Below, in pieces: positions 1 to 16,700 of a DNA stretch of 64,000 nucleotides; the stretch's first letter is position 1, and each line of letters begins with the position of its first letter. The stretch lies in the IMG/VR virus record IMGVR_UViG_3300024346_000004; one strand, written 5' to 3'. Source of the stretch: a virus (Duplodnaviria > Caudoviricetes). Both the position numbers and the translations under genes were made by a program. The notes below the pieces were generated by a model. That model was not told the DNA's origin, did no database searches, and saw only the letters and a program-made list of their open reading frames with translations.

Positions 1-89
1 GAAGCATCTCTCGTAGATGAAGATATAGTCCGACACTCCTTAGAAATGAGGAGGTAAGCTTAGGATAAAGAGCCTAAGTCTAACAGGAG
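1..89 (+). ncRNA. Group I intron, 3' portion (P8, J8/7-P7, P9, P9.1 and terminal G); 5' part lies outside the window
   Basis: P8 hairpin CATCT/AGATG (5-9/15-19); canonical S element AAGATATAGTCC (20-31); P9 stem CTCCTTA/TGAGGAG with GAAA tetraloop (36-53); further stem CTTAGG/CCTAAG (59-64/73-78); candidate terminal G at 86, 87 or 89. Confidence 0.87.
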
Positions 90-129
90 CATTAACGATT
101 ATTCAGTCAGCAGAATTTCTGTTGCTTGA
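90..129 (+). CDS. Terminal exon (INDYSVSRISVA*) of the intron-interrupted gene, probably major capsid protein C-terminus
   Basis: Short frame 91-129 between the intron 3' end and a strong terminator; peptide resembles capsid C-terminal strands as I recall them. An alternative frame ending at TGA 143-145 is not excluded. Confidence 0.5.
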
Positions 130-147
130 CGTTTTGTCATGGTGACT

Positions 148-186
148 ATAGTAGGGGAAGTTTTATACTTCCCCTACTATTTTTTT
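148..186 (+). terminator. Rho-independent terminator
   Basis: 14-bp perfect stem ATAGTAGGGGAAGT/ACTTCCCCTACTAT (148-161/167-180) followed by a T run. Confidence 0.9.
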
Positions 187-197
187 AAAATAACAAC

Positions 198-229
198 AAA
201 AAAGAGGAGAATAAATCTCCTCTTTTTTT
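198..229 (-). terminator. Rho-independent terminator (bidirectional shape) for the 1411-aa gene
   Basis: AAAAAAGAGGAGA-ataaa-TCTCCTCTTTTTT, about 20 nt past the minus-strand stop at 250. Confidence 0.85.
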
Positions 230-249
230 ATAACTTCTAACCTTATCTA

Positions 250-3200
250 CTAATAATCATCTTCAACATATTCATTATCATCTTCTGTATATTCATTATT
301 TCTATATTGTTCTAATAGTTCTCTTCGTCTATCATAATCAAACAATGCACTGTATCCATCATCACCATGATCGAATGAAGCGTTATGACTTTCTTTTTTA
401 GCTTTTTTGCTTCTATTATCAAGAATTAAGGCTTGATTTGATGAATCTGTTTCATATACTTCAAAATTAATTCTATGTTCATCATCAAAGTATTCCATAG
501 ATTTATATGGATTATATAAAGATGGAGTTTTTTTTGCTGTAGAATCCACTCTTAAGGTGTATGCATTATTATATGGTCCTTCACCACCTGTAACTTTTCT
601 TTCACCCATTTTAGAAGCTAGTTCGTGGATCATCTCTTTTAATAACTGTTTTCTGTTTTCGCTATGAAAGAAATCATTAGATCCTGTTTCAAAAGAGTCA
701 AAGCAGACATTACCAAAACTATCTTCCCATACATAGCTTTGCATATGAATTTTACCAGTCTTATCTTCTACAACAAAGAAGCAAGCTTGAGGAGAAACTT
801 GTCCATCTAGAGCAGAAGTAAAAGCTTCTCCTTCTGGGTGTTGACAGCAACTTGTATATTGACCTAAGAACATACCTCTGGTATCACTTCTAGGTAAAAA
901 TCTAGCTGTATATTTTCCTCTTGTTGAAGTGTTATCAATAGCCCAATCAGGCATAGGTACAGATTGACTATCTATAAATATTCTTTCTAGTACTTCATAT
1001 TTATGATGTGCAATAGCATTTTGCGATTCTTCATTTGCGTGTGTATGATCTCTTACGAAAGTATCAAAATGTTCTGCAAATTCAACAGCAAAATTAGTAT
1101 CTTTTGGTTCTAAATGGATCAATCTATTTGTAAAGTTATCATATTTAATAAACTTAACTAAATCAGCTGGAGAATATTGTTTTGATAATTCTGATACTAT
1201 TCCTGAGATATTAGTATTTGTTGTAGCGTCTATAAATGAAATATTTCTATTCCATCCTGCTAATATAGTCTTAATTAAATCTTTTGTAGTAGCTTGATAA
1301 TTCTTAAGAAAATATTCTTTAGCCCCTTTTAACCGGAGACTATTTTCTGGCACAATTTGAGCTAATTCGTTTATAGCACCATTAGCTTCGTTAGAATCTA
1401 GCTCAACAAATTTAGTTTTATTTTCAGGATCATCTTTTGTTCGTTCAGCGTTAAAATGTTTTACAGTTACATATTTGTTTAATCCTTTTTCACTTTCATT
1501 ACCAAAGAATTCTGTAATTTTTAATATATTTTTAATTTGTTCATTATTAATATTTCTAAAATTAATATTATTTGATAATTCTTGTTCTAATTTTTGATTA
1601 ATATCAAGAGGTTCTATATTATATTCTTTATTTAATACTTCATCTAGAACATCAAATAAATAATCATATTTATTATTTTTTGTTTGTTCTAATAGGAACA
1701 TTCTAACTTTATTTTTTTTATTTACATCATTTTGTAAGCTGGCAAAAAATCTAACTTCGGATTCATTTAATCCAAGAACACTTTTATAATTGTCTTGAAA
1801 TTCGATTGGATTTGAAAATTGTCTTGTATTCAATCCACCTGGAAGGGTGTTATTTCTTTCTTCTTCTGGAGTTTTTGTATACCAATTAATAAGCCAATTC
1901 GCTTGTTTTATTTGAGTGTCTAAATTATTAAATTGTCTATTTGCAACATTTAAGTTTTCTTGATTTTTATCATAGATATTTTTTAGAGAATCGTTTTTAT
2001 CATCTATTAAAAATCCATATTCTGTGGGTGAAATATTTTTAGAAAATTCAGGTAATGAAATATTATCTTTTTTATATATTCTTTCAATATATTTAATAAT
2101 AGCTACAGGAGTGTGGAAATTTGTAATGTTCGGATTTTTTACAAGCAGAGAAGAGACTAAATTATATTCTTCATTATCTGGGGTTAGATTAGGAAATTTT
2201 TGTTCAATAGCTTTTTTTGCATTTTCTATTTTTTCTAAATCTAAAACATGCAATAAATCATCGAAAGTATATTTTTTGCCATCTTTTTCTAAATTATTTA
2301 AATTATTATAGAAAGATTCAGCATCTTTAAAACCAAAGAACATTAATAAAGGAATGATATTTCTATTTAAAACTTTGATTTTATTTGTCTCAATAAGAAT
2401 TTTATTATTACTATTTTTATATCCTTGACCAATAAACTTTGCAAATCTTAAATCTAAACCAACTAAAGATAAATTGCCTAGAATATAATCATAACTGTAA
2501 TCATTATCAAAGAATACAAATCTATTCGCTGTTCTATTTACATCAATAGGGTGTTCAGTATTATTTGTATCTTCGTTAAATGATTCTAATAATTTAATTT
2601 TATCTTCTTTAGATAGATCGAAAACACAGTAGTTATTAATAATTGATTGTATGAATAAACCATAATTAGGAATACTGTAAATATTAGGAAAATATTCTTT
2701 TATTTTATTTATTTTTTCGTATCCACCTTCAGTACCATGAGATTTTATTAATCTGATTTCTTCTGGTGATAAATTCATTTGTTCAGGTTTTAATTCTCTG
2801 ATAATGAATTTCAAATAATCTGTCCCACTGTTATATATTGCTAGAGTATTATTAGTAAAATATTCTAGCACTACAGATGGGTTTATTCCGGATAAAGTTT
2901 TACAAATCTCATTATCTTTTATATATAATTTATTAAAAAATGAAAATATGCTTATATTATTATCAGCTAAATTTTGGATGAATTGTGCATAAAGTTCTGG
3001 ATTTCTTTTAAAATTATCATCAAGTTTTTTAACAGAAGAAATCAAAGTCATAGTTTTGCTGGCAGAATAAGGTGATATATCATTTTCATCTTCATAATTT
3101 GGAGTTATTAAGTCATTATCACTATTAATAAGATTGTTGTTTTTTAAAGTCAAATTTGCAATATTAAAATATGTATTGCTGTTTTGTATTTCTTCAAAAG

Positions 3201-4485
3201 ACACCCCGGAATCAAGAGCATATCCTATAGCATCAGCACCGAAACGATCATTATTATTGAAATTTAATTTTTTAATATGTGCTAATTTGAGTATATCAAC
3301 TACAGTCTGTGGTTTAAAAGTATCACATAACTTAACAGCTCTCTCTTTGTCAATTTCTAGCTTATCAATACCATAATCTTTTAACTCATCATAATAAGCT
3401 ACTAAAATTTCTTTTAATTTATCTCCTAATAAATTAAATCTTGAATTAATAACACTTTCTGCTTGTCTTATATCTTTATAATAAACGTTTGTATTAAATG
3501 TAAATTTGTCATCTGGTTGTAAGCTTACTATTTTAATAAAAGTATCAAACCCATTTTTCATAGCATATTGAAATCTACTTTTAAGTTCATCTATTTTATT
3601 TAAAGTGGATTCAATAGGAACTTTATAGATTTGTAATATTTGATCATTATTCATTACATCAAAAGATTGCAATAAACTACTACTTAAATTATTTCTAATG
3701 ATAAATGAAATTAATGATTGAACAGTAGCGGGATCTTGTTTATATTCCTCTTCAAAAACTTTCATATATTTATCATAGTCAGATTTTGCAGTTTCTCTAT
3801 CTTTAGATTCAACTTTTAAAGCCATATTAATACGGCTCATGACATAAATAGCTATTTTTTCTGGACTATTTAATTCTCTAGCAAAATATTCTAATCCTAA
3901 TAAAACACTTTTATTGTAATAATAAGCAAGTGCAAGCCCTAGTGCATAATTAAAATGAGTAAATTGGTGATAATATTCTTCTTGTTTTCTAGCATTATAA
4001 GGTTCTACTGAATGTTGAAGATATGTAAGAGCTTCAACTAATCCCTCTTCAACAGTATTTTTAGATTTCAAAATACTTAATAAAGAATTAGCTATACTTG
4101 TAACTTCTTTATCTTTTTCAGGCCCAAATGAAGATAAGTTTGATTTATGATGAAATATTTTTTCATCAAATTCTCCTAGACTATCGGATTTTAAGAATGG
4201 TAAACCTAAGTCATCATGTAATCTTTGTCTATTTAATACTTCTGGAATTTCGGCATCAGGATTAGGTTGCAAAGTATTTGGATCGTTAGATTTGATTGGA
4301 GGAACAATATCTTCATCTACTTCAATTTCTTCATCTTGTTCAGTTTGAGATGTGATTATTTTTGCATGGTAATTAGAAACTGTAGTAAGGTAAGAAGATA
4401 AAGAAAATTCACCTTTGTTATCTAATATTTCTGAGTATTTAATAAGCTTATCGAAAGTAGCTTTAGCTGATTTGATTCTTGACAT
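250..4485 (-). CDS. Large protein with C-terminal PcfJ-like domain; candidate head-packaged/ejected protein
   Basis: 1411-aa ORF with AGGT SD-like site; C-terminal motif MFLGQYTSCCQHP...FFVVED...QSYVW...CFDSFE; acidic tail; N-terminal LIKxSxxLDxxG motif. Confidence 0.6.
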   Translation of the reverse strand: MSRIKSAKATFDKLIKYSEILDNKGEFSLSSYLTTVSNYHAKIITSQTEQDEEIEVDEDIVPPIKSNDPNTLQPNPDAEIPEVLNRQRLHDDLGLPFLKSDSLGEFDEKIFHHKSNLSSFGPEKDKEVTSIANSLLSILKSKNTVEEGLVEALTYLQHSVEPYNARKQEEYYHQFTHFNYALGLALAYYYNKSVLLGLEYFARELNSPEKIAIYVMSRINMALKVESKDRETAKSDYDKYMKVFEEEYKQDPATVQSLISFIIRNNLSSSLLQSFDVMNNDQILQIYKVPIESTLNKIDELKSRFQYAMKNGFDTFIKIVSLQPDDKFTFNTNVYYKDIRQAESVINSRFNLLGDKLKEILVAYYDELKDYGIDKLEIDKERAVKLCDTFKPQTVVDILKLAHIKKLNFNNNDRFGADAIGYALDSGVSFEEIQNSNTYFNIANLTLKNNNLINSDNDLITPNYEDENDISPYSASKTMTLISSVKKLDDNFKRNPELYAQFIQNLADNNISIFSFFNKLYIKDNEICKTLSGINPSVVLEYFTNNTLAIYNSGTDYLKFIIRELKPEQMNLSPEEIRLIKSHGTEGGYEKINKIKEYFPNIYSIPNYGLFIQSIINNYCVFDLSKEDKIKLLESFNEDTNNTEHPIDVNRTANRFVFFDNDYSYDYILGNLSLVGLDLRFAKFIGQGYKNSNNKILIETNKIKVLNRNIIPLLMFFGFKDAESFYNNLNNLEKDGKKYTFDDLLHVLDLEKIENAKKAIEQKFPNLTPDNEEYNLVSSLLVKNPNITNFHTPVAIIKYIERIYKKDNISLPEFSKNISPTEYGFLIDDKNDSLKNIYDKNQENLNVANRQFNNLDTQIKQANWLINWYTKTPEEERNNTLPGGLNTRQFSNPIEFQDNYKSVLGLNESEVRFFASLQNDVNKKNKVRMFLLEQTKNNKYDYLFDVLDEVLNKEYNIEPLDINQKLEQELSNNINFRNINNEQIKNILKITEFFGNESEKGLNKYVTVKHFNAERTKDDPENKTKFVELDSNEANGAINELAQIVPENSLRLKGAKEYFLKNYQATTKDLIKTILAGWNRNISFIDATTNTNISGIVSELSKQYSPADLVKFIKYDNFTNRLIHLEPKDTNFAVEFAEHFDTFVRDHTHANEESQNAIAHHKYEVLERIFIDSQSVPMPDWAIDNTSTRGKYTARFLPRSDTRGMFLGQYTSCCQHPEGEAFTSALDGQVSPQACFFVVEDKTGKIHMQSYVWEDSFGNVCFDSFETGSNDFFHSENRKQLLKEMIHELASKMGERKVTGGEGPYNNAYTLRVDSTAKKTPSLYNPYKSMEYFDDEHRINFEVYETDSSNQALILDNRSKKAKKESHNASFDHGDDGYSALFDYDRRRELLEQYRNNEYTEDDNEYVEDDY

Positions 4486-4586
4486 TTATTAACCTGAAAA
4501 AGAGTTATAGTATATATATATTTCTACACATTACTATATCTTTCTTCTTTGTATGGATATTTGATAATTATATAGAATATTATTAT

Positions 4587-5048
4587 ATGACTCAGCAAGA
4601 AGCATATGGTGAATTTTATCCATTATTACAAAGCTCTGGAAAGATATATAACAAATCATCATTAGTTTATGTATATAGAGCTTTTGTAGGTGAATATATA
4701 GAAACATGGACAGCTGATGGATTAGAAACCACAAATTATGCTTGTGATGGTGATTTTGTAGTACAGAATATTCAAACATCATATCAGGAAAAATATATTG
4801 TTCCTGAAGATATGTTTTTTAAAAGGTACAAATTCTTTTATTATCATGAAAAAGGAGCTATATACATGCCAATTGGAAGTGTATTAGCAACAAAATATCA
4901 TGGAGAAGATTTATGTTTCGTAGCTAAGTGGGGTAGATTGATGTCCCTAAAAACAGGGGATATTATTGCTTCTCCTATGCCTGATTGTAAAGAAGTATAT
5001 AGAATAGCGTCTCAGGAATTTTATGAGTCGTATGGAGATTTATTGTAA
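4587..5048 (+). CDS. PGDYG-like domain protein (internally duplicated)
   Basis: Likely start ATG 4587 (MTQQEAY); two similar halves GDFVV...EKYIV...FFKRY and GDIIA...EVYRI...FYESY. Confidence 0.6.
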   Translation: MTQQEAYGEFYPLLQSSGKIYNKSSLVYVYRAFVGEYIETWTADGLETTNYACDGDFVVQNIQTSYQEKYIVPEDMFFKRYKFFYYHEKGAIYMPIGSVLATKYHGEDLCFVAKWGRLMSLKTGDIIASPMPDCKEVYRIASQEFYESYGDLL

Positions 5049-6145
5049 TGTGGTATAAGATCGCAAAATATGGATATATAGATGTTCAAAAATACATAGA
5101 AGATGGATTAGGGTATGAACTTAATTTCAAGGTGGATGAATATTTAAAATATATTATTGTTAATTCAGCCAATTCTGTCGGCAATAATATGGTAGTAAAT
5201 TTTGACAAATTAAATACCCAACTTCAAAATTCTCCATTCAATAGTTTTGTATCCGGATTTGCAGCGATAGATCCTAATGATGAAAGTGGGCTAGAGGGAG
5301 CTATAGGGTCTTATGAGCCGGAAACAAAAAATATGTTTATAATCCCTCAATTCCCAAAATTTATGATTCCTAAAATGGTTGATGTTTTATTACATGAATT
5401 TGCTCATGCTTTAGATCCTGGAATGAATAAAAGAAAACCAGATAAACCATACAGCAAACATAACATAATGAATATACTTCCTTATGTTATCAATAATATT
5501 AATCAATTCAAGCAATCTTCAGGAAGAATGTTATCAAAAGAGCAAATTTGGAGTGTTTTTATTGAAATAGCTGTCAAAGAAAAATTTGGAGCTAATTTGC
5601 CGGAATCTGTAAAAGCTCAATATAAAGAAGATGTTAATGATATTTTAAGTAAAGATAAAGATGCAATCACTGATAATATTCTTGCAATCTTGAGCAATAA
5701 TGTTGTTGATGAAAAAAGTGCGGATGATTTCGTACAAAAAGAATATCTTAATCAGAGAGTTGAAGCTCCAGCTCAATTATTATCATTACATAGAGAATCT
5801 ATGCCTTCAGTATTACTTAATTATTGTGCTACTTCTTTATTAGCATTTTTGATGCAAAGAAAGCCTAATTTATTACAAATTTTAGGAGTTACTTCTGAAA
5901 CAAATGCTGTAGAAGTATTACGTAAAATTAAAGAAAAGTCTCCTGGTTTCATTGACAGTAATATGAAACAAAAAATGATGAGTATAGTCAAAGAAGAATT
6001 GTTTACAAATATACAAAATTCAGATATTTTACAAATAAGTAAAGACTTTGTTTTAAAAACACGAAGAAAGCATGAAAAGAGACAAATTTATAAAATCCTA
6101 AATGATAACGTTACTGAATTCAAAAAACTTGTTGATGAACTTTAG
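5048..6145 (+). CDS. Zincin-like metallopeptidase (HEXXH)
   Basis: LLHEFAHALDP preceded by GSYEP strand; distal YLNQRVEAPA may supply a third Glu ligand; N-terminus MWYKIAK. Confidence 0.7.
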   Translation: MWYKIAKYGYIDVQKYIEDGLGYELNFKVDEYLKYIIVNSANSVGNNMVVNFDKLNTQLQNSPFNSFVSGFAAIDPNDESGLEGAIGSYEPETKNMFIIPQFPKFMIPKMVDVLLHEFAHALDPGMNKRKPDKPYSKHNIMNILPYVINNINQFKQSSGRMLSKEQIWSVFIEIAVKEKFGANLPESVKAQYKEDVNDILSKDKDAITDNILAILSNNVVDEKSADDFVQKEYLNQRVEAPAQLLSLHRESMPSVLLNYCATSLLAFLMQRKPNLLQILGVTSETNAVEVLRKIKEKSPGFIDSNMKQKMMSIVKEELFTNIQNSDILQISKDFVLKTRRKHEKRQIYKILNDNVTEFKKLVDEL

Positions 6146-6178
6146 ATTGTAACATAAATTTCTGTAAAATTAAATTTA

Positions 6179-6205
6179 AAGGTTCGATATAACTTTTAGA
6201 AGAAT
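6179..6205 (+). promoter_or_regulatory. Putative phage late promoter
   Basis: AGGT(6180-83)-N18-GAAT(6202-05) in the intergenic gap before 6236. Confidence 0.6.
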
Positions 6206-6235
6206 CAAATATTATAAATTGATTGAGGTATTTTA

Positions 6236-6574
6236 GTGAGAGATAGGGATTTTGATTTTTATCCCAAGATTAATAGGGGTGAATTTGCTGATCGTAAGAA
6301 AAGTAAATATAGTGTTGAAGATGACGATGATCTTAGAGATGCATTTGATGAAATTGTAGATGAGATTTCTGAAAAATTTCTAGGCATGTATGGAATCCAC
6401 AATGTTACAAAAAGTATTTCAAGTAATGCTGTATTTGTATATATTGACAATCCTTCTGATTTACCTGAAGATGAATTAAAAGAAATTAAGATTCTTTCAA
6501 GACCTCATAAATTAGTTGTCAAGCAATCAAAAAATAAAGAAAATACAGAACATTTAGATAAATTAATTAAATGA
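6236..6574 (+). CDS. Hypothetical protein
   Basis: 112 aa, GTG start with GAGGT SD. Confidence 0.75.
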   Translation: MRDRDFDFYPKINRGEFADRKKSKYSVEDDDDLRDAFDEIVDEISEKFLGMYGIHNVTKSISSNAVFVYIDNPSDLPEDELKEIKILSRPHKLVVKQSKNKENTEHLDKLIK

Positions 6575-6786
6575 AAAACGAACTTATAACCAGACTTATT
6601 AAAGTGTCAGCTCTTTTGGATGAAGAGGGTGAAGAAGATTTATCCACTCACTATTTAGATCAAGCTGAAGATATTATGAATGATCCTGATTCAGAAGGTG
6701 ATGAAGTATTACCAGAAGATACAGAAGAAATTTCAGCTGATGATTTTAAGTCAATGCTAGAAGAAATGGGTATAGAAGTTAACTAG
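6571..6786 (+). CDS. Small acidic protein with LIKxSxxLDxxG motif
   Basis: 71 aa, ATGA overlap with the upstream gene, strongly D/E-rich. Confidence 0.75.
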   Translation: MKNELITRLIKVSALLDEEGEEDLSTHYLDQAEDIMNDPDSEGDEVLPEDTEEISADDFKSMLEEMGIEVN

Positions 6787-7481
6787 ATTTTTGGCATACT
6801 AGACATGTATTGTTGTAGCATTTCATCAGATACATTACTTTGCTGTGGAATAGTCTGATTATCCATCATTTGTTGTGGAGCTAAACCAAAAGCATCAGAT
6901 CTAGCGGTCATAATTAATTGTAATCTTTCAAAATCGGATATTGACATTTTCTTAAATTCATCTCTTGTCATAGTCAATATCCCTTTTGTCATATAGTCCA
7001 CTTCTATAATTAAGGGCAGCACAGGATAACCGTCTTGTGTTTCGCCCTTAAAGTATTTAAGGGCAGATGTATATATAGAATTAGCTTCTTTAGCATCTAG
7101 AGTAATTCTTTTGTAATATTCAGACCAAAATGATTCAATGTATGGCTGAGAAATTTTAGATAATAAAGTCCCATAGATATCATTATATTCAATTCTATTT
7201 TCGCTAATTGAATAGATCCATTTTAAGACTTTTTTGATTAGTTCTCTTTTTTCATATTCGCCGTTAAAATAAATTTCATCATCATCTTTTCTAAACGATA
7301 ATGCTTCTATTCTTAAGGCTTCTTCCCAAGTTAAATCTTCACAGCAAAACAAGATTGAATTATCATTTAATTCAATCTTAATAATGTATTCGTCATCTTT
7401 TGCTTTTGGGGGAATAGAGTTTTCTTGATTATCGGAAGAAATTAACTGCAATAATCTTTCTAATGCTTCGTCTTTTGTCAT
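6783..7481 (-). CDS. Putative tail assembly chaperone (long form)
   Basis: Follows a tube-like gene; LTWEEALRIE...KRELIKK helical pattern plus C-terminal MTRDEFKKMSISDFERL segment. Confidence 0.45.
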   Translation of the reverse strand: MTKDEALERLLQLISSDNQENSIPPKAKDDEYIIKIELNDNSILFCCEDLTWEEALRIEALSFRKDDDEIYFNGEYEKRELIKKVLKWIYSISENRIEYNDIYGTLLSKISQPYIESFWSEYYKRITLDAKEANSIYTSALKYFKGETQDGYPVLPLIIEVDYMTKGILTMTRDEFKKMSISDFERLQLIMTARSDAFGLAPQQMMDNQTIPQQSNVSDEMLQQYMSSMPKI

Positions 7482-8749
7482 TTTACATCCTTGAATGGGA
7501 CAGCAAATTCACTTACTCTTGCATCTTTAGTTATATCAGATAAACCAGGATTAATTACACCACCATTAGCTAATCTTGCAACAAAATTAAATGTATGATA
7601 ATAACCGCTTTCAGAAGATATTTCGTGTGTAGGTTGTTGCCATTCGATATTATCCATAGGGAAGAAAAAACAACCACCAAAATATAGTGTTAATGCTCCA
7701 GAATTGCTTATATCTAATATTTCTTCTTCGCAAAAAAACGTAAAACTTCCACGTACAGTTCTACTTTTTAATGAAGCATATTTCGGACCGACATGATCGC
7801 CTAAATAGCTACCTGAAATATCTGTAGGATTTGTATATGTAAAATCGATTTCATTAGAAATTTCAAGATCCATCTTGACTAGTTTATATGTAGGAATTTT
7901 TTTAGTATTAAATCTATTTTTTACAGCTTTATATAAATTATCAACAGATGTATGAGCTTTAAAGTCAATCAAACAATCTATAATATTGCAGAATCTATAA
8001 GGTAAAAAATTTGTGGTAGGTTCTTGCGCTGATGTAGGACTTTGAGTATTTTCATCTATTTTAGGAACAAATGAGTAAACATTAGGCTTTGTTTTATCCA
8101 AAAATGGCTTGACTAAAAATTTACCACCAACAAAAGATGCTGTAAATACAACAGGTTGTAATTTACTGGATCCATCTACGGAAATAGTTATGCTGGACAA
8201 AAACGCAGGACCATACGATAAATGTGACTCTATACTAGTTGCAAGCATAATAGGATATAAAGGTACTACACAAGCGGAATATAATATCTTTTCTGATTCT
8301 AAAACTTCTGGTACACCTTTGTATGTTGCAGAGTTAGAAGATTCTATTGTTACTAAAGGACTATACTTAAAAGTCCCACTATACTTCTGTTCACCATATC
8401 TAGGCATATTAACTTGGCTAACAGATAAACCAGTTTGAACACCTGAAAATATTTGCGATCCTGTATTGTCTGAAAATGAAGAAACCCAAAATGGATGAAA
8501 ACTTTCTACAGCATCAAGATAATAATGTTTTGTAAAATCATCATATACAACAGGCAATAAGCTTCCAAACTTAAATAAATCCCATCTCCAAATATCTTTT
8601 TTTACTTTACTTGTGCGAATTTTAGATGTTTCAACACTAGCATATAAACTACTCCATATACTTTTATTAACTGCTGGAATACCTAATATATAAGCAGTGT
8701 TATTAGAAGCGCTAGAAGGGTTAAAAGTATTTGTTAAGTACGTAATCAT
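7478..8749 (-). CDS. Putative tail tube-like protein (paralogue 2)
   Basis: AFLSSITISVD...KMDLEISNEID...SRTVRGSFTF...LTLYFG strand pattern, colinear with the 452-aa protein. Confidence 0.55.
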   Translation of the reverse strand: MITYLTNTFNPSSASNNTAYILGIPAVNKSIWSSLYASVETSKIRTSKVKKDIWRWDLFKFGSLLPVVYDDFTKHYYLDAVESFHPFWVSSFSDNTGSQIFSGVQTGLSVSQVNMPRYGEQKYSGTFKYSPLVTIESSNSATYKGVPEVLESEKILYSACVVPLYPIMLATSIESHLSYGPAFLSSITISVDGSSKLQPVVFTASFVGGKFLVKPFLDKTKPNVYSFVPKIDENTQSPTSAQEPTTNFLPYRFCNIIDCLIDFKAHTSVDNLYKAVKNRFNTKKIPTYKLVKMDLEISNEIDFTYTNPTDISGSYLGDHVGPKYASLKSRTVRGSFTFFCEEEILDISNSGALTLYFGGCFFFPMDNIEWQQPTHEISSESGYYHTFNFVARLANGGVINPGLSDITKDARVSEFAVPFKDVK

Positions 8750-9147
8750 TTCGCCCCAGTAATTCTAACCCATTCTTTAGCTAATGCCTTAACTATCTCG
8801 TATCTCATCCTGCCCAATGTTTCTAGATTAATTGGAATTTGTCTATTAGTTTCTGAATCTTTTAAATTCCAGGATTTGAAGAAATTAAGGAGAATTAATT
8901 TACAGAATACAGAAATTCTCACCATTGGATTTCCTGTCACCGCATTAATAATAGTAGCTTCTTCTAAAATTTTAGACATTGTATCAAAATCTCTTCCAGT
9001 AACATCGCATACAATTTCCAAAACATCATCACCATCTTCATCAGGCTTTAAGATTTTGATAGAAGTAGCAATATCATCAATTTTCCCTGTGATTTTTAAT
9101 TTAACTGTAATAGGAAAGGTCTGATTAGGATCAATAAATATACTCAT
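8746..9147 (-). CDS. Putative tail assembly chaperone
   Basis: 133 aa after a tube-like gene; FKSWNLKD...QIPINLETLGRM motif typical of tail chaperones. Confidence 0.55.
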   Translation of the reverse strand: MSIFIDPNQTFPITVKLKITGKIDDIATSIKILKPDEDGDDVLEIVCDVTGRDFDTMSKILEEATIINAVTGNPMVRISVFCKLILLNFFKSWNLKDSETNRQIPINLETLGRMRYEIVKALAKEWVRITGAK

Positions 9148-9149
9148 GA

Positions 9150-10508
9150 TTAATAATTATTCGAATATTCCAAAATAGGCAATGTAGTAAAGTTTTCTGA
9201 TAACAATGAGAATTTTACAGTTTTAATAATTTGTCCAGTAGAATCCATACTAGACTCTCCCACTGACCAGGCTAATTCTCTCAACGTTAACTTAAAATCG
9301 CCACAATTTATTTCTATACCGCCATTATTTATACTACTACTACCAGACATAACTTCAGCAAATGTATGTGGAGCTAAAGGAGATATATATTTGATAGTTC
9401 CTGATAACTTTTGACCATTACAAGAAAAAGCAATAGGATGAGCATTATATCTCTGTCTGGATAATCTAGATGTATTTACAGATGGCTGACAATACAATTC
9501 TTCAAAATTATTTTCCAATGTTATATCAATTTCTTTCACTAAAAAAGAAGAAATACTCAATCCTTGAAAACCGTTAAAGAATTTATCATCCAAAGGTAAA
9601 GCTAAACCAAATGTACCAGGATTAGCTGAAATGTAATTCAACCTAGTATTACTTCCATGTATTACTCTTGTTCCTGGGATTTTTCTTATATTATTTTGTA
9701 ATGTCTCGAAATTGCTATATAAATAGGCTTGTGGGCTTCTATTTAAAAAAGATGATTCAATCTCTACATTTGCACTTAAATCATTGTCAGATGTAATATT
9801 TAAGCTTATTTTTGAGACAGCACAGTTAGATATTAATCCTTCTCTTAATGATAAAAGAGAAAATGTAGGATCTTTATCAACATATTGGTCTCTTCCTACT
9901 ATAAATGTCTTACTAGTAGTGCGTTGAATAGTAGTGGGAGATTGAAAAGTAACGGTTCTTGTATTTTTGTTAATATTAGTTATAGTGACGTTTTCATTAA
10001 CTTCTGAATTATCAAAAGAAGCTAGAGTAACTTGTTTAGGTAGAGTAAAAGGTAAAAACTCCACCATATTTTTAATTATAAGTTGTGTAGTTCCGATTGC
10101 GATTATAGAAGACGATACTACTGGCTCTACAGAAGATATGGCTCCTGTTTTAGTACCCATATATCCATGAACTGCAAAATCCCATAAGGAAGCAAATCCA
10201 TTTTCTACACACCCAGATATATTAGCTCTAACAGGCATATCCATAGATAACTTCAATGTTTGTTTAGCTATTGAAAAAGTATTAGGTAATGGACCTTCAC
10301 CAGCTAATCTTTTGTCAAATTCAGAAGATTGTTCAGTATTTAAAGTTAATGATGCTGGTTGAACAACATATTTATAATCTAGAGCAATTGGATTAAATGC
10401 AAAATCAGGTTCATAAAATTCATCTCTAACAATAAATAATAGATCAGAGAAACCATTATTTAAAGAAAGATTAGAATAAAAATTCCTAAATTCATTTGTG
10501 TAAGGCAT
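9150..10508 (-). CDS. Putative tail tube protein (paralogue 1) with inserted beta domain
   Basis: NCAVSKISLNI...KEIDITLENNFE...QKLSGTIKY pattern of tail tube folds; insertion around IGTTQLII...TVTFQSPT. Confidence 0.6.
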   Translation of the reverse strand: MPYTNEFRNFYSNLSLNNGFSDLLFIVRDEFYEPDFAFNPIALDYKYVVQPASLTLNTEQSSEFDKRLAGEGPLPNTFSIAKQTLKLSMDMPVRANISGCVENGFASLWDFAVHGYMGTKTGAISSVEPVVSSSIIAIGTTQLIIKNMVEFLPFTLPKQVTLASFDNSEVNENVTITNINKNTRTVTFQSPTTIQRTTSKTFIVGRDQYVDKDPTFSLLSLREGLISNCAVSKISLNITSDNDLSANVEIESSFLNRSPQAYLYSNFETLQNNIRKIPGTRVIHGSNTRLNYISANPGTFGLALPLDDKFFNGFQGLSISSFLVKEIDITLENNFEELYCQPSVNTSRLSRQRYNAHPIAFSCNGQKLSGTIKYISPLAPHTFAEVMSGSSSINNGGIEINCGDFKLTLRELAWSVGESSMDSTGQIIKTVKFSLLSENFTTLPILEYSNNY

Positions 10509-12898
10509 TATGGGACCGTTTCAACCGTAATTAAATCATATATTGACCAGTTGACTAAACCACTTGTAAACAATGTCAAATTTGTACCTGGATTTACATA
10601 TACTTCATCAACTCTATCAAATAAATCTGTAGCAGTACCCAAAAGAAATCTAGTATTTCTTGCTGTGTTTTTAGGAACTGTGATAGATAAAGATTTAGGA
10701 GTGCCATTTTCACCGTTTCTGGCTATTACAGTTACTACTAAATCATTTTTTGTAAATGTTTCTAAAATAGTAGAAGTAACTAGTTCTCCTTGCAAATTAT
10801 ATGATGGCAAGCCTGTATTAGTTAATGTTTCTACAGGAGGCACATATACTGATAATCTAGAGGGAATGTGAGCTATATCTTCAGTTAACTTTACGCCTCT
10901 GGTAATAGTCTTAGATGGAGCAATACCATTATCAATAAAACCTAATGGCTTGTAATAAATTGTTCTATTAGAAGCAGCTGTCCAGAATGAGTTAAAAGGA
11001 TCATTTGTTGTATAGACTAAATTCGTTCCTGAAGTTATGGAACCAAAGTAGAATGTTGTAGCCGGAATAGCTGCTACTGGAACCTTAATAACAATCCAAT
11101 ATGTTGTTCCCACTAATAGATTCGCACCATTAGTAAAAGCTACAGAATAGTAATCAGATGTAGTAGAGATAGAACCGAATTTAAGATTACCTGTTTGTGT
11201 TATTGGAAAGTCAGTATTAGGCTCCCCACCAGCATCAGGACATATGTTAATTTCAAAACCAGCATTAGGATTAGTAAGTGTTGTAGCAGATCTATGAATC
11301 TGTAATCTTACTCCGCCACAATAAACTTTATCTCCATTTGACAAACTTGAATTTGTAGGAATAAACTTAAGTGCTACGAATGTATTTGCTAATGTGTATG
11401 GAGCAGTAGGAGTAATCGGAACATTACTAAACTTAGGCGGGCCTTGTATTCTATTTACAGGAGTTATTCTATAATCAATAGACTCTGAAGAATTAGTAGA
11501 TCTTCTATACACATGATAAAAGCGAGCATTAGATGACCCTGACCAAGATAATTCGTTCATAAAATAATCAGTAGATGTTGATTTTGATATGAGAGAATTC
11601 TTTACTATTGCTGTTTCACCCGTATTTGTTATTGTAGAAACACCATAAATATATGTTCCAGTAGTAATAGTAGAATAATCAGAAGTTGTGTTATAAGATG
11701 ACAAAGTAAGATTCGAAACTGTAGAGCCAGTCATTACAGGACTAGTTGAATCATACAGATCTCCTCTAAAAATAGCAAATGTATGTACTAGATCAGATTC
11801 TGTTTCATCATAATATGCTTTTGTAAATTTTTGATCAAAATCGAATCTTTCTAAACCGTTAAAACTTCTACCAATATTATATAAAGAGGTAGGTCTAAAA
11901 GGTTGTAAATTCCAGAATCTTTTAAAACTAACTTGTGATCCTGATTTAGCTCTAGTGAAATTTATCAAAGATTGTATTAGAGTATTAATTCCAGCGATAT
12001 TCTTCAATGAATTTAAGTCTTGTAATGCATTTGAACAGGCAGACAAAACATTGCTTCTATCTTCAGAGTCTCCCAATATAGAAGTACTAGAATCTGCATT
12101 TGGCATATCTAAAGCTGTTCTAAGTATTTGATAAGCATTTGTGATAGTTGGGTCATTAGGATTTTCAACAACTATTTTGCATAATTCTACATGATTGTCT
12201 GGAACTAATGGAAAATATTTAAAGTCTGCTGGATATAAGGATGCTGTACTAACCGCTGGACCAGAAATAGATTTTATTCTAGGCTCTATTACAAAACTGA
12301 TAGGTGTATTTTTATAAATGATAGATGTTACTGATGAAAATGTTGTGTCAATATTTAGATATGTAGATGATTCAACACCAGTAAATAAATATAGTTTAGT
12401 ACCAATGTAAGCTTTGACTGGATATGTTAGATTATCTGGAATGACATCTAGCTTTATTTTGGTAGCGGAAATACTAGCTTGTTCAGATACTGTAGCGTTT
12501 AGATTAGTAGAAGCGCTTTCCAATTCAGTATGAGAAACTGCTAACACAATACCGTAAACATGAGTAGAAGGATATGTGGCTGAAAAATATTTTTTTATGC
12601 CTATTCGTTGAGAAGGGACAATAACGACATTACCAAGATATCCTATTTGACCACCTGAGTTTACAATATAATCTCCATCAGAAGGATTGTAAGAAGTCTC
12701 AAAAGATAGTGGAGATGTTTCAATTACACCCAAATAAGGTATGCCATTTTCAGCAATTGACAACAGATTATTAATTTCAAAAACAGATGTACCGGGAGTT
12801 TTTTCATCACCAATTGCACCACTAATAGATTCGTGCAATTCACCTATTGTATTAGATACTGTTTTTACTACTTCTTCTATTTTTGAATTTACAGCCAT
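10508..12898 (-). CDS. Virion structural protein with beta-sandwich (choice-of-anchor-R-like) module
   Basis: 796 aa, S/T-rich; module VALKF...INICPDAGGEP...GTTYWIVI at about 10950-11390. Confidence 0.6.
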   Translation of the reverse strand: MAVNSKIEEVVKTVSNTIGELHESISGAIGDEKTPGTSVFEINNLLSIAENGIPYLGVIETSPLSFETSYNPSDGDYIVNSGGQIGYLGNVVIVPSQRIGIKKYFSATYPSTHVYGIVLAVSHTELESASTNLNATVSEQASISATKIKLDVIPDNLTYPVKAYIGTKLYLFTGVESSTYLNIDTTFSSVTSIIYKNTPISFVIEPRIKSISGPAVSTASLYPADFKYFPLVPDNHVELCKIVVENPNDPTITNAYQILRTALDMPNADSSTSILGDSEDRSNVLSACSNALQDLNSLKNIAGINTLIQSLINFTRAKSGSQVSFKRFWNLQPFRPTSLYNIGRSFNGLERFDFDQKFTKAYYDETESDLVHTFAIFRGDLYDSTSPVMTGSTVSNLTLSSYNTTSDYSTITTGTYIYGVSTITNTGETAIVKNSLISKSTSTDYFMNELSWSGSSNARFYHVYRRSTNSSESIDYRITPVNRIQGPPKFSNVPITPTAPYTLANTFVALKFIPTNSSLSNGDKVYCGGVRLQIHRSATTLTNPNAGFEINICPDAGGEPNTDFPITQTGNLKFGSISTTSDYYSVAFTNGANLLVGTTYWIVIKVPVAAIPATTFYFGSITSGTNLVYTTNDPFNSFWTAASNRTIYYKPLGFIDNGIAPSKTITRGVKLTEDIAHIPSRLSVYVPPVETLTNTGLPSYNLQGELVTSTILETFTKNDLVVTVIARNGENGTPKSLSITVPKNTARNTRFLLGTATDLFDRVDEVYVNPGTNLTLFTSGLVNWSIYDLITVETVP

Positions 12899-13764
12899 TA
12901 TATTACCATGTTCAAGTCGTTAATAATAAAATTTCTTAGATCTGTTGGCAGTTCATATGGAGATGTCTGCCAATATTGTGAGAATGAAGGGTTCCAATCG
13001 GGTAATAAAACCCATTCTCTAACTATAGTTTTGATATTATTGTATAGTGTATTATACTGTTCTAAAGTAAGTGATTCCGCTCTTATGATAGAAGGTGTCA
13101 TTTTAAATGCTAAATCTTCTTCACTGAATCCAAATACTCCCCTTTGTTTTCTTATATCTTTAATGTAAACATTATAGGATGAAGTAAGAATATCTCCATT
13201 GTATTCATTTATATCAATAACAAATCTAAATATTGGTATGCTATAAAATTCAGAATATGGGCCTGTATTAGCAGGAGTAGGAGCATCAGGTATATTCAAA
13301 CTCATAGCATCCTCTAATGAAATATCCTTAGATATCAATAATGGATCGCCTGAATTAGTGGTTCCGCCTCTTGAAAGATTACTAGTTATATTAAATACTC
13401 TTACAGTGCTAAAATAAGATGTCAAATATACTGTGCCAAAAGCATAACAGTTATAGTAAATAGCCCCAGTATTTAATTGTGTAAATAAATCTAGGCCTAA
13501 TTCTGTGGAATTTATAATGGAATAATTTAGTCCATTATCACCAGAAGCATATCCTTTACCTAAAATCATAGTTTGATTGATGTTAGCGGATAAAGATTGC
13601 TCTATATTAGCACATCCATATCCTAAAGATAAATTTCTAGTTTCTGTTAATGTTGATAGAGCATATTCTTTTAGAGCAACATTATAATCAAGAGTTGACT
13701 TATATTCATTGATTCTTTTAACCAATAAATCCATAATATATGCGGAGTAGCCATTAACATCCAT
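12898..13764 (-). CDS. Hypothetical virion protein
   Basis: 288 aa, TAATG-coupled within the tail operon. Confidence 0.7.
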   Translation of the reverse strand: MDVNGYSAYIMDLLVKRINEYKSTLDYNVALKEYALSTLTETRNLSLGYGCANIEQSLSANINQTMILGKGYASGDNGLNYSIINSTELGLDLFTQLNTGAIYYNCYAFGTVYLTSYFSTVRVFNITSNLSRGGTTNSGDPLLISKDISLEDAMSLNIPDAPTPANTGPYSEFYSIPIFRFVIDINEYNGDILTSSYNVYIKDIRKQRGVFGFSEEDLAFKMTPSIIRAESLTLEQYNTLYNNIKTIVREWVLLPDWNPSFSQYWQTSPYELPTDLRNFIINDLNMVI

Positions 13765-13766
13765 AT

Positions 13767-16700
13767 TTATATACTCCTAAATATTAATCTATCACCAGGA
13801 GGAGCACCATTTGTAGGAGTGTCTAACTCTTCCATAGTTTTGCCAACCCTAAGATATAAAATTTTGTCAATCTTGTGTGATCCAATTTGTACTGGATTAG
13901 GTGTTTGACTATTTGATGAATTCGAATTAATCAATGTTAAAGTTTGTGTAGGGCTGCTCCATTGCGCTTTCAAAATAAAAGCAGCACCAGAGATAGTAGT
14001 ATTAGTATAATAATATTCTATTTTAACATTATAAGTATTGCTATTCAAACAATTTAATGCATAAGTAAATATATTTTGTCCAACATTATTCCATTGATCA
14101 ATTACTAAATCATTATCGATATATACTCTAATACCTGAGTTTGCTGTAAATCTGAAAGTATATGTTTCTGAATATAATGGAGTAAAATTACCAATAGCTA
14201 CTGCATTAACATATGTAGGATTATCTAAATTATCATCAGCATTAGGATAATCAATACTTGTTTCTGTAATATCTAAGAATGGAGTAAAAGATGTAGTATC
14301 AACAATATGATAATTGCTTGCATCTTTTTGATACCACTTAATACGCCATTTAGGAGATGCTGAGAAGATTTTATTTGTAATGGTGTATATTTGTCCATTA
14401 GATAAATATTTGATACAAGCATATATATCATTACTTACTGGAGCATATTGCCAAACATTTGAATCATTCCTAAAAGCTCTTGGATATATGTAAAGATTTT
14501 GTGGAGAATCTAACTTGTTACATATATAGTTCCAATAACCATCTACATAATATATATCTGAGAATTCTCTATCTTTATTTGGTCCAGGCAAATATTTTGT
14601 AATGTTTAATGAGCTTCTGTTAAAGCTACCTAATATTTCTGTATCTATTTGATAGAACTTTATATATGCAGTTCCTGAAGAAATTGCCCAGACTGAATTT
14701 GAAATAGTAGCAATATTATTAGATGTTGTATTGCATTCTAAATAAAATGTTCCATCAATCGCAGGACTTGATAATTCTAATACTATCCAATAATCTTTGT
14801 TGAATGACAAGCTATAAGGAAGTATAAATGTTTCAGAATTATATGTATTGATATTTACATCTGAAAATTTAATTTCACTTCCGGATGATAACTTATTTCC
14901 AGGCAATCCATTATTATCTAAATAAATATGAGATTTTATAGTTGATTCAGAATTTAGTATTTTTGTTTTACCAGAATCTAATATTGCTTTTAAGTTTACA
15001 TCGAATCTTTCAATATTAGAGTTAACTGTAGGTGATATCTTAATTGCAATATAATCAGATATAAGTTTATTACTACCGCCTACTGTATTATTGATAGCAG
15101 AATCTATAGATACTTTAGCTTCTGTACCATATGTTTCAAGATCTCCGATAGTAATACCACTTGTAGCAATGGTGAAAGAATCAGCAACTATTTTCTGTGG
15201 TTCTGGATCTGGGTCTTGTACAGGTGCAATATTCTCACCAAAATAAGAGTTAAGATTAATATTCCAATACGGTGTTGAATCAAAAGTATATTGAGCTACA
15301 CAAACTCCTAAATTCTTTAATGCGACCCAGGATTCAGGATATTGACTATTATTAACATCATAAAATTCCCCACCCGCTTCTAGGAACTTCAATACTTCTT
15401 CATCTATTTGTGCTGATGTATAACCTAAATTTTCATATTTTTTTCTAAAATCAGCTTCAGATATTTTTGTTGAATCTGGAGGAGCTACAACTTTAGTTTT
15501 AATTTGCCTAGCTTTACCCATTTCTAAATCAGGGATAATTCCAGCATATCCTTGTAGTCTCCAGCTATCAATATTTTCAAGAACGCCATCACTAATAGAT
15601 GTTCTTTCTGCTTCTGTGCCTTTTTTGAAATATCCGATAGTATTAAGTTGCTGATTAACTCTATTATTATATTCATGATCAGAAAGAAAATACTTAGAAG
15701 CCATAATCTTGAGATCTTTTTGTAATACATTCTGATTACTATCTTCTAGTAATAATCTAAAAGTATAATCTTCACCAACTTTATTTCCAGAAGTATTATC
15801 TCCCACTACCTCACATAGATATGATGGTTCTAAATATACTTCGAAATTTTCTGATGAACTAAGAGTCTCATTAGTTATATCTAATTCATCAGATTTTAAG
15901 TAACCTAAAATAGTCGATGGCTGTTTTACCGCTAAAGACTTAATTGATTCTCTTCCATAAATATCAAATTGAATTGCTTTTGGTTCTTCATTATTTGCAT
16001 TTTGTAATAATTCTGTAGATGGTTTTTTGATGTTGTAATGTAATAGATTCTGCTTATTAATATCAAAAGAAAAATCGCTAGGTAATGAATCTGTTAATGA
16101 TGCTTGGTTAAAAGAATCAATAATAGCTTGAAAAGTAGATGTTCTAAATGTATCTGTTAAATCTAAACTTCTAAAAAAGTCTACGGCATTAGCAAATCCA
16201 GGAACTAATATTTTAGCAACATCTTCATCGCCAATATTTTTCTGGGCATAATTAGGTAATGGTTGATCAAATTCAATTATTTCATTGATATAAATAATAT
16301 TATTTTCAATTGGATTTTCAGGGTCAGGTGAAAGAATAAATGTCTGATTACTGCCTTCTACTACACCATACAAATATCCCGGAGCTTTAATCAAATATAA
16401 GGTTACTAGAATATCATATTCTTTAGGAACTACTGGTAAGTATTTATATTTGTTAGAAATAAAATCTTTATGAATAGGATTACCAATAAAAGATTTATAT
16501 TCTACATAAGGATCTTGCCCATCTAATCCTTTATTGTATCCAGCCAGCACAACAGGCAAAATTTCATCTATAGATAATTGAGCTATATTGTTATAACTTT
16601 TTACAATACCTTGATCATACGAAGGAAAATTATTTGTTATTCTATATTTGTCTGGTGCGGTCAAATCAGAATATTCACCATCATAAAGATAGTTATGTGT

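Follow-up and report, generated by a model that had tools for sequence, protein, structure and literature searches.

A group I intron twelve codons from the end of a phage major capsid gene encloses an in-frame look-alike of the ending that it displaces, a candidate fail-safe

How could a phage carry a group I intron close to the end of its major capsid gene, and what would become of the capsid protein whenever the RNA is translated unspliced? This question is raised by the first 129 nucleotides of the window, i.e., the whole 64,000-nt stretch of DNA analyzed here, which derives from the IMG/VR virus record IMGVR_UViG_3300024346_000004 (Duplodnaviria; Caudoviricetes). A sequence-only reading had proposed that these nucleotides contain the 3′ part of a group I intron inserted in a probable major capsid gene, and that completion of the capsid protein would depend on splicing. 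Our results support the intron and its host gene, and point to a different fate of the unspliced RNA. With a probability of roughly 0.68, the locus could be understood as a group I intron with guide-defined splice sites, in which a look-alike of the displaced coding end is kept as a selected fail-safe and which spreads together with an endonuclease gene.

Window 1-89 (plus strand) corresponds to nt 200-288 at the 3′ end of a 288-nt intron without an open reading frame. The fragment begins with the end of P3′ (1-4), followed by the P8 hairpin CATCT/AGATG (5-19) and by AAGATATAGTCC (20-31), which comprises J8/7 (20-25) and the 3′ strand of P7, i.e., P7′ (26-30). These are followed by P9 (36-53), in which 36-42 pair with 47-53 (7 bp) below a GAAA loop (43-46), and by P9.1 (58-79), in which 58-64 pair with 73-79 (7 bp), and the fragment closes with the terminal G89 of the string ACAGGAG, where G86 and G87 are also present; all of these elements lie on the plus strand. 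Thus P8, AAGATATAGTCC, the GAAA-capped P9, a further stem, the candidates for the terminal G, a small exon and a terminator, all of which had been named from the letters alone, were found at the places given for them. The 89-nt fragment had no group I match in Rfam, either in a permissive scan of window 1-3000 or in a scan of the whole window at the gathering threshold, because it is too short, and Rfam on the window alone returned only weak terminator-driven sRNA look-alikes at 107-252.

The window edge cuts the intron, and everything 5′ of window position 1 (intron nt 1-199) was read from sibling contigs. No near-identical phage record emerged when window 1-3000 was compared with phage records by megablast, and window-specific strings had no match in exact-pattern scans of viral contigs. 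Exact look-up of the 365-aa protein of the window led to the sibling contig L003, in which 3750-3875 is 100% identical to window 1-126 (window position 1 being L003 3750), and which is 99.74% identical to window 188-16145 (15,958 nt). The intron variants were found by a metagenome scan for a 30-nt intron motif together with protein-cluster look-ups, and a wider search pattern for the intron's 5′ part matched only an IMG/VR contig that was already known.

The complete intron in L003 (3551-3838, 288 nt), with its 5′ splice site within codon Leu272, matches the group I intron model RF00028 with 88.2 bits (E 3e-22; gathering threshold, 50 bits), which bears out the proposed group I identity. Other variants score 91.6 (L099), 91.0 (L105) and 80.1 bits (L092), and a variant in L111, whose element is cut by the contig end (L111 1019-1264), scores 58.6 bits. 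The P3-P7 core and the GACTA motif that the sequence-only reading had looked for upstream are both present, as read in the siblings, and no homing endonuclease lies within the intron, where one had also been looked for. In an alignment of five variants (alignment A2), 73 base pairs were identified, and 99.7% of the 365 pair cells are paired, versus 35-47% in slid controls. Double-compensatory changes occur at four pairs, in P2, P6a, P7.1 and P9.1, a number matched by only one of 500 shuffles, and a sixth variant (L114) contributes one further compensated pair in P6a. Within the conserved core (P3-P8, the P3/P7 pseudoknot, P4-P6 and J8/7), all helices are 93-100% paired, with P7 formed by GACUA/UAGUC. 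Between P7 and P3′, where introns of subgroup IA have the P7.1/P7.2 insertion, two helices fit (intron nt 161-190 and 171-181), and one of them shows a double change from G-C to A-U. No part of the locus is better conserved than the ribozyme core, which diverges by 4-7% among the variants. Taken together, the comparison of variants establishes the identity of the intron: window 1-89 forms the 3′ terminus of a group I intron that has no ORF, a candidate member of the IA type, for which activity as a self-splicing ribozyme is predicted from its fold. The intron as such is another member of the documented class of group I introns in phage late genes, for which cases in capsid genes are already on record in the literature.

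The splice sites are specified by a guide sequence, UUAAUGGGGGC (5′-UUAAUG-GGGGC-3′, L003 3587-3597), which is complementary to the ligated exons GCCCU+CAUUAA at 11 of 11 positions, including one U·G. The GGGGC part pairs with GCCCU at the end of exon 1 (L003 3546-3550) to form P1, with the U·G pair at the splice site and three extra pairs reaching into the intron. The resulting helix, GCCCU and the following UAU with AUGGGGGC, has 8 bp and is 100% paired in five variants, and folding of the 58-nt segment at minimum energy gave this long-range P1 in four of four variants. The UUAAUG part pairs with CAUUAA at the start of exon 2 (window 90-95) to form a P10 of 6 bp, in which 93% of the cells are paired in five variants and the single change, A to G, leaves a G·U pair. 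By these pairings and their conservation, the splice sites are established after GCCCU and after G89, so that codon Leu272 is split into CU and C. Of the three terminal G candidates given earlier (G86, G87 and G89), G89 is the one chosen by the P10 register and by conservation, being unchanged in all variants, and G87 is U in three variants. A 3′ splice site at G86 was rejected, as the product would gain a Ser found in no homologue and P10 would fall out of register. A search for the exact spliced product among protein matches, as a proxy for cDNA, returned nothing usable.

The exon side of P1 also distinguishes the alleles, since GCC CU at the end of exon 1 occurs in five of five intron-bearing alleles versus one of 28 close intron-less alleles, the remainder of which have other Ala and Leu codons at this position. 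The exception, L005 (3001-3855), has GCC CTT GTA at the insertion site and ends with VNDYAVSRISVA and a stop codon; these bases equal the exon/intron start of L092 and L099, and L005 could represent either a natural target allele or an allele after loss of the intron. At the identical insertion site, in a capsid gene of 87% identity, L111 carries an intron of a more diverged lineage, where the exon sequence GCUGU faces the guide GCAGU. Both sides have thus changed in such a way that the P1 pairing is preserved, a covariation that rests on direct reading, as the L111 guide could not be aligned to the others by MAFFT. L111, too, forms a long-range closing helix (z −3.85), with the energy-minimal fold in a slightly different register.

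The ORF upstream of the intron (L003 2736-3590, 284 aa) matches phrog_2522 over residues 5-280 (E 4.2e-67), reaching position 314 of 318 in the PHROG 2522 profile, and matches PDB 6wkk_A, the major capsid protein gp27 of Bacillus phage G, with an E value of 1.8e-90; the identity to the phage G protein is 50% (tblastn). On these matches, the host gene is that of an HK97-fold major capsid protein of the phage G gp27 type, which agrees with the host gene proposed earlier, and the insertion 12 codons ahead of the stop likewise agrees with the distance that had been given, about 12 codons before the end. Uncultured contigs as long as 488 kb carry relatives, indicating that the phage is an uncultured jumbo phage whose capsid protein is of the phage G type.

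The predicted spliced product has 284 aa and ends with GFAL-INDYSVSRISVA, and it is colinear with about 78 intron-less relatives in IMG/VR, which end with GFAL(I/V)NDY(A/S)VSR(I/V)(T/S)V(S/A). Exon 2 occupies window 90-129 (plus strand), where C90 completes Leu272, 91-126 encode INDYSVSRISVA and 127-129 are the TGA stop. Among the variants, 15-44% of the bases of exon 2 differ, with only 0-3 residue changes. The second residue of the tail, Asn, is found in 115 of 120 cluster representatives, is invariant in an alignment of 60 sequences and is retained in phage G. In a structure model of an intron-less allele, which is moderately confident (mean pLDDT 60.9) and was used for the C-terminal strand only, residues 278-283 form a predicted beta strand, and residues 281-284 have an average pLDDT of 90. 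Downstream of the stop, the intrinsic terminator of the capsid gene lies at window 148-186 (plus strand; a 14-bp stem at 148-180 followed by a T run), and the terminator of a convergent gene at 198-228 (minus strand) marks the end of the capsid-gene locus; these two terminator-like sites were found in a terminator scan, versus 0.1 expected in shuffles. The convergent ORF (window 250-4485, minus strand) encodes an Asn/Lys-rich protein of 1411 aa with a Cys/His-rich C-terminal domain. Farther along, window 26782-63427 (plus strand) holds an unbroken series of very large ORFs of 649, 1163, 1453, 991, 1191, 312, 2286, 1190 and 2867 aa.

The 36 nt enclosed by P1 extend the frame of exon 1 by 12 codons and a stop, giving an ORF of the native length of 284 aa. 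In L003, this look-alike ending reads IQDYAVSRISIN before its stop codon, as compared with INDYSVSRISVA before the stop codon in the real exon 2. An in-frame copy with the same stop position is present in all seven full or nearly full variants, which belong to two lineages, and the six look-alike peptides that they encode, IQDYAVSRISIN, IQDYAVSKITIN, IQDYAVSRISVN, VQDYSVSRVTIN, VHDYSVSRVSVS and VTDYAVARIICN, all consist of 12 codons before the stop. The copy was seen in the siblings only, of which the closest, L003, is 99.7% identical to the window. Copies within the L003-type family show up to 14 differences in 36 nt among themselves, and 15-19 in 36 nt in comparison with L111. With up to 19 of 36 nt different, only 5-7 residues change, and the variable sites fall at codon positions 1, 2 and 3 in numbers of 5, 2 and 9, including switches of Ser between AGU and UCA. 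Random mutation at equal density would keep the peptide so well with P ≤ 0.0005 for L003 versus L111 and P ≤ 0.04 for most other pairs, where the sample is small, the seven variants share ancestry and the permutation P values are not independent. This pattern of substitution indicates that the copy is under protein-level constraint. Its length is not simply a consequence of the guide: the stop of the copy overlaps the guide sequence in L003-type introns, and in L111, whose exon 2 is off the contig, the stop lies 22 nt ahead of the guide with an extra hairpin of about 20 nt in between, so that the position of the guide does not force the length of the copy. One residue sets the copies apart from the real ending, as Asn at residue 2 is replaced by Gln, His or Thr in every copy. 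The reading frames and the conservation of both endings are thereby established by comparison, and both endings look usable.

These observations do not support the view that completion of the capsid depends on splicing, as the unspliced ORF reads into the look-alike tail and stops at 284 aa. Unspliced mRNA had been expected to yield a protein without its last strand; in each of the seven variants, this strand is replaced by the 12-codon in-frame copy. The term is apt in that residues 278-283 form a predicted beta strand, and what fails is the claim that the strand would be missing from the unspliced product. An upstream ORF already complete without the exon had been regarded as an argument against the intron, and the unspliced ORF is formally of this kind, being of full length. 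Nonetheless, the conservation of the ribozyme and of the coding end indicates that the intron and exon 2 are real and under selection. Gene callers take the unspliced ORF for a complete capsid gene, and annotation thereby misses the intron and the true C-terminus. In literature searches, no published description of a surrogate C-terminus within an intron was found. A related capsid gene in L112 contains a different intervening sequence of about 270 nt (L112 2368-2637), two codons upstream (after GFG), which Rfam failed to match even at E 1 and which lacks a look-alike ending, its frame reading 16 unrelated codons; exon 2 of this gene is VINDYSISRILVA followed by a stop codon and then by an HNH-like ORF. 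Since the L112 insert has no copy, the look-alike ending belongs to this intron family and not to the site.

In protein-coding genes of bacteria and phages, ribosomes trail the polymerase and disturb the folding of ribozymes, so that some RNA is translated unspliced. The conflict between translation and ribozyme folding, and the role of in-frame stops, have been reviewed (PMC3984707). By the sequence of the capsid locus, ribosomes reaching the 5′ splice site before or without splicing would read through the copy and stop at the native length. Unspliced RNA would then yield a full-length capsid protein with a near-native tail, differing mainly at Asn, and spliced RNA would yield the canonical tail INDYSVSRISVA. 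The copy may have been kept since incomplete splicing would be unavoidable in a very heavily translated late gene, in which truncated subunits would be harmful and could poison assembly; by supplying the missing end, it could make the intron less costly to the phage in a late gene that is polymer-forming and the most heavily translated.

Splicing itself seems still to be selected, because the ribozyme core and exon 2 are both conserved, and the Asn-less tail is likely second best, which could be the reason why splicing has been retained. The phage may use the look-alike protein, but Asn is invariant in 60 homologues and kept in phage G and is replaced in the copy, so that this protein may be poorer or even unusable. 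A stronger form of the proposal, in which the intron is "splicing-optional", two capsid isoforms arise from spliced and unspliced RNA and the copy is a selected stand-in, is tentative, and we would put it at somewhat less than an even chance. The replacement of Asn by Gln, His or Thr may be forced by the RNA, which is plausible because AUU AAC, if kept exactly behind the 5′ splice site, would match the guide no less well than exon 2, hindering P10 and the second splicing step. If the fail-safe reading is true, a stand-in exon removes the cost of truncation and would explain the persistence of introns in late structural genes. The locus is also well suited to testing, as its natural variants differ in the presence of the intron and of the endonuclease gene, two C-terminal peptides can be predicted and a relative of solved structure exists (6WKK).

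Other explanations give the copy, or the intron, a lesser role. The copy could be a neutral relic left from the arrival of the intron, for example by an illegitimate recombination that duplicated the last 36 nt, in which case it would be functionless and only the spliced RNA would matter. The absence of the invariant Asn from every copy would suit such a relic, and some of the conservation could come from the RNA itself, as the start and end of the copy overlap the P1 extension and the guide, which impose a constraint of their own; endonuclease-driven repair next door could also make duplications. However, a relic at up to 47-53% base divergence would be expected to show stops, frameshifts or radical changes, whereas all seven variants retain 12 codons and a stop, with changes that are mostly at third positions and replacements that are conservative, and the copy also persists in the separately diverged lineage L111. 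A neutral relic is therefore considered unlikely. Repeated gene conversion from real alleles could also mimic protein-level selection, but is disfavored, because conversion would restore Asn, which is never seen in the copies.

It is also conceivable that the intron is dead, i.e., that the upstream ORF with its look-alike tail is the real capsid gene and that the ribozyme and the 12-codon exon are a decaying remnant in the 3′ UTR. The full length of this ORF (284 aa, matching the PHROG profile up to position 314 of 318) and its annotation as complete by gene callers would be in line with this, but decay is hard to reconcile with a ribozyme core that is the best conserved part of the locus (4-7% divergence) and whose helices are held by compensatory changes, with an exact P1 and P10, and with an exon 2 in which 15-44% of the bases diverge but frame, length, stop and Asn are preserved. 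Furthermore, the tail of the upstream ORF departs from all 78 intron-less relatives at Asn, and a dead intron appears very improbable. Both endings might, in another arrangement, be read in tandem. The cmscan alignment of Rfam places P1 locally, which would put the 5′ splice site after AGUAU, five bases before the stop, and, with a join at G86 that stays in frame, would give a product ending with DYAVSRIS-MS-INDYSVSRISVA. This local helix has two mismatches in L003 and no adjacent P10, its exon strand varies (AGUAUU, ACAAUC, CAGUAA and CAGUCA) while the guide is invariant, with no matching change, and its product would exceed every homologue by about 12 residues, all of which makes it scarcely credible. 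The reading of the copy as a selected fail-safe behind a long-range P1 is thus preferred, and it remains to be considered how the intron and its copy could have spread.

Exon 1 of L003 and that of L004 are 84% identical (130 differences in 815 positions, with 8 residue changes), as compared with about 95% identity of their introns and one difference in 39 nt of the copy. The intron being much more alike than exon 1, it has moved, together with its copy, between diverged genomes. In L003, a free-standing LAGLIDADG gene (ORF L003 3971-5146) is located about 130 nt downstream of exon 2, with matches to Pfam PF14528 (33.5 bits; cut-off, 22.5) and phrog_4645 (E 1e-35). This endonuclease cassette is absent from the window, where the corresponding site at 185-187 is empty in comparison with L003. 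All mismatches and gaps between window 1-184 and L003 are packed into 127-184, and the cassette is located between the two matching stretches. The divergent tract together with the empty site spans window 127-187, and its L003 counterpart is 3876-5140, with the 1.2-kb insert at L003 3934-5140. A divergent tract beside an empty site is as expected for an endonuclease target or a co-conversion tract. Across the alleles, the endonuclease gene follows five of eight intron-bearing versus ten of 78 intron-less ones (Fisher P 0.003). The intron thus has probably spread by co-conversion with the neighboring LAGLIDADG gene, in the manner of trans or collaborative homing.

Systems of collaborative or trans homing have been described for cyanophage psbA with F-CphI, for the DNA polymerase gene of phage phiI and for T4 mobE with the nrdB intron (PMC3984707). 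The capsid locus resembles them in that an ORF-less intron is accompanied, in the siblings, by a free-standing endonuclease gene about 130 nt downstream, that this gene is enriched at intron-bearing alleles and that the intron is more alike than the exons. It differs in that the divergent tract follows the stop codon (window 127-184) and is not at the intron insertion site, and in that the two also occur apart, the endonuclease gene at alleles that lack the intron and the intron, as in the window, where the endonuclease gene is missing. Another parallel for the copy is the mobile element in atp6 of Allomyces macrogynus, for which Paquin, Laforest and Lang reportedly described, in 1994, a foreign copy of the C-terminal part of the gene. 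In both cases, the 3′ end of an essential gene holds a mobile element that is associated with a second, diverged C-terminal copy. At atp6, however, the duplicate is a pseudogene displaced at the level of the DNA, and no ribozyme decides between endings, whereas the capsid intron places both endings in one transcript and would leave the choice to RNA splicing.

As a ribozyme, the capsid intron belongs to the same RF00028 family as the introns of T4 td, nrdB and nrdD and other phage introns of the IA type. It differs from these in sitting in the major capsid gene, 12 codons from its end, and in having a P1 that closes over a coding loop of 36 nt that mimics the displaced exon. An in-frame stop soon after the 5′ splice site is typical of such introns (PMC3984707), and in this respect the capsid intron is like them. 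The same review cites Hayakawa & Ishizuka 2009 and 2012 for group I introns in flagellin genes of Bacillota. By blastn at lower stringency, window 16-76 is 85% identical to sequences of two crAss-like Bacteroides phages, and in Kehishuvirus 'tikkala' the match falls between two halves of thyX, within a bona fide group I intron (71.8 bits). The thyX intron has the J8/7-P7-P9 sequence in common with the capsid intron, but differs in that the frame runs about six unrelated codons into the intron and then stops, with no mimic of the exon.

The exact 30-nt J8/7-P7-P9 motif of the capsid intron also occurs in introns of psbA and of ribonucleotide reductase (RNR) genes. The psbA introns with this motif (L085, L086, L088, L090, L091, L094, L096, L097, L100, L102, L103 and L107) are flanked by cyanophage-like sequence encoding NPFHMMGVAGV, and two such introns lie about 400 nt apart in L091 and L103. 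Ribonucleotide reductase genes of huge uncultured phages contain related introns in L002 (1887-2056), L093, L106 and L110, and the gene in L002 has, besides the intron, an intein-like insert and an endonuclease-like ORF.
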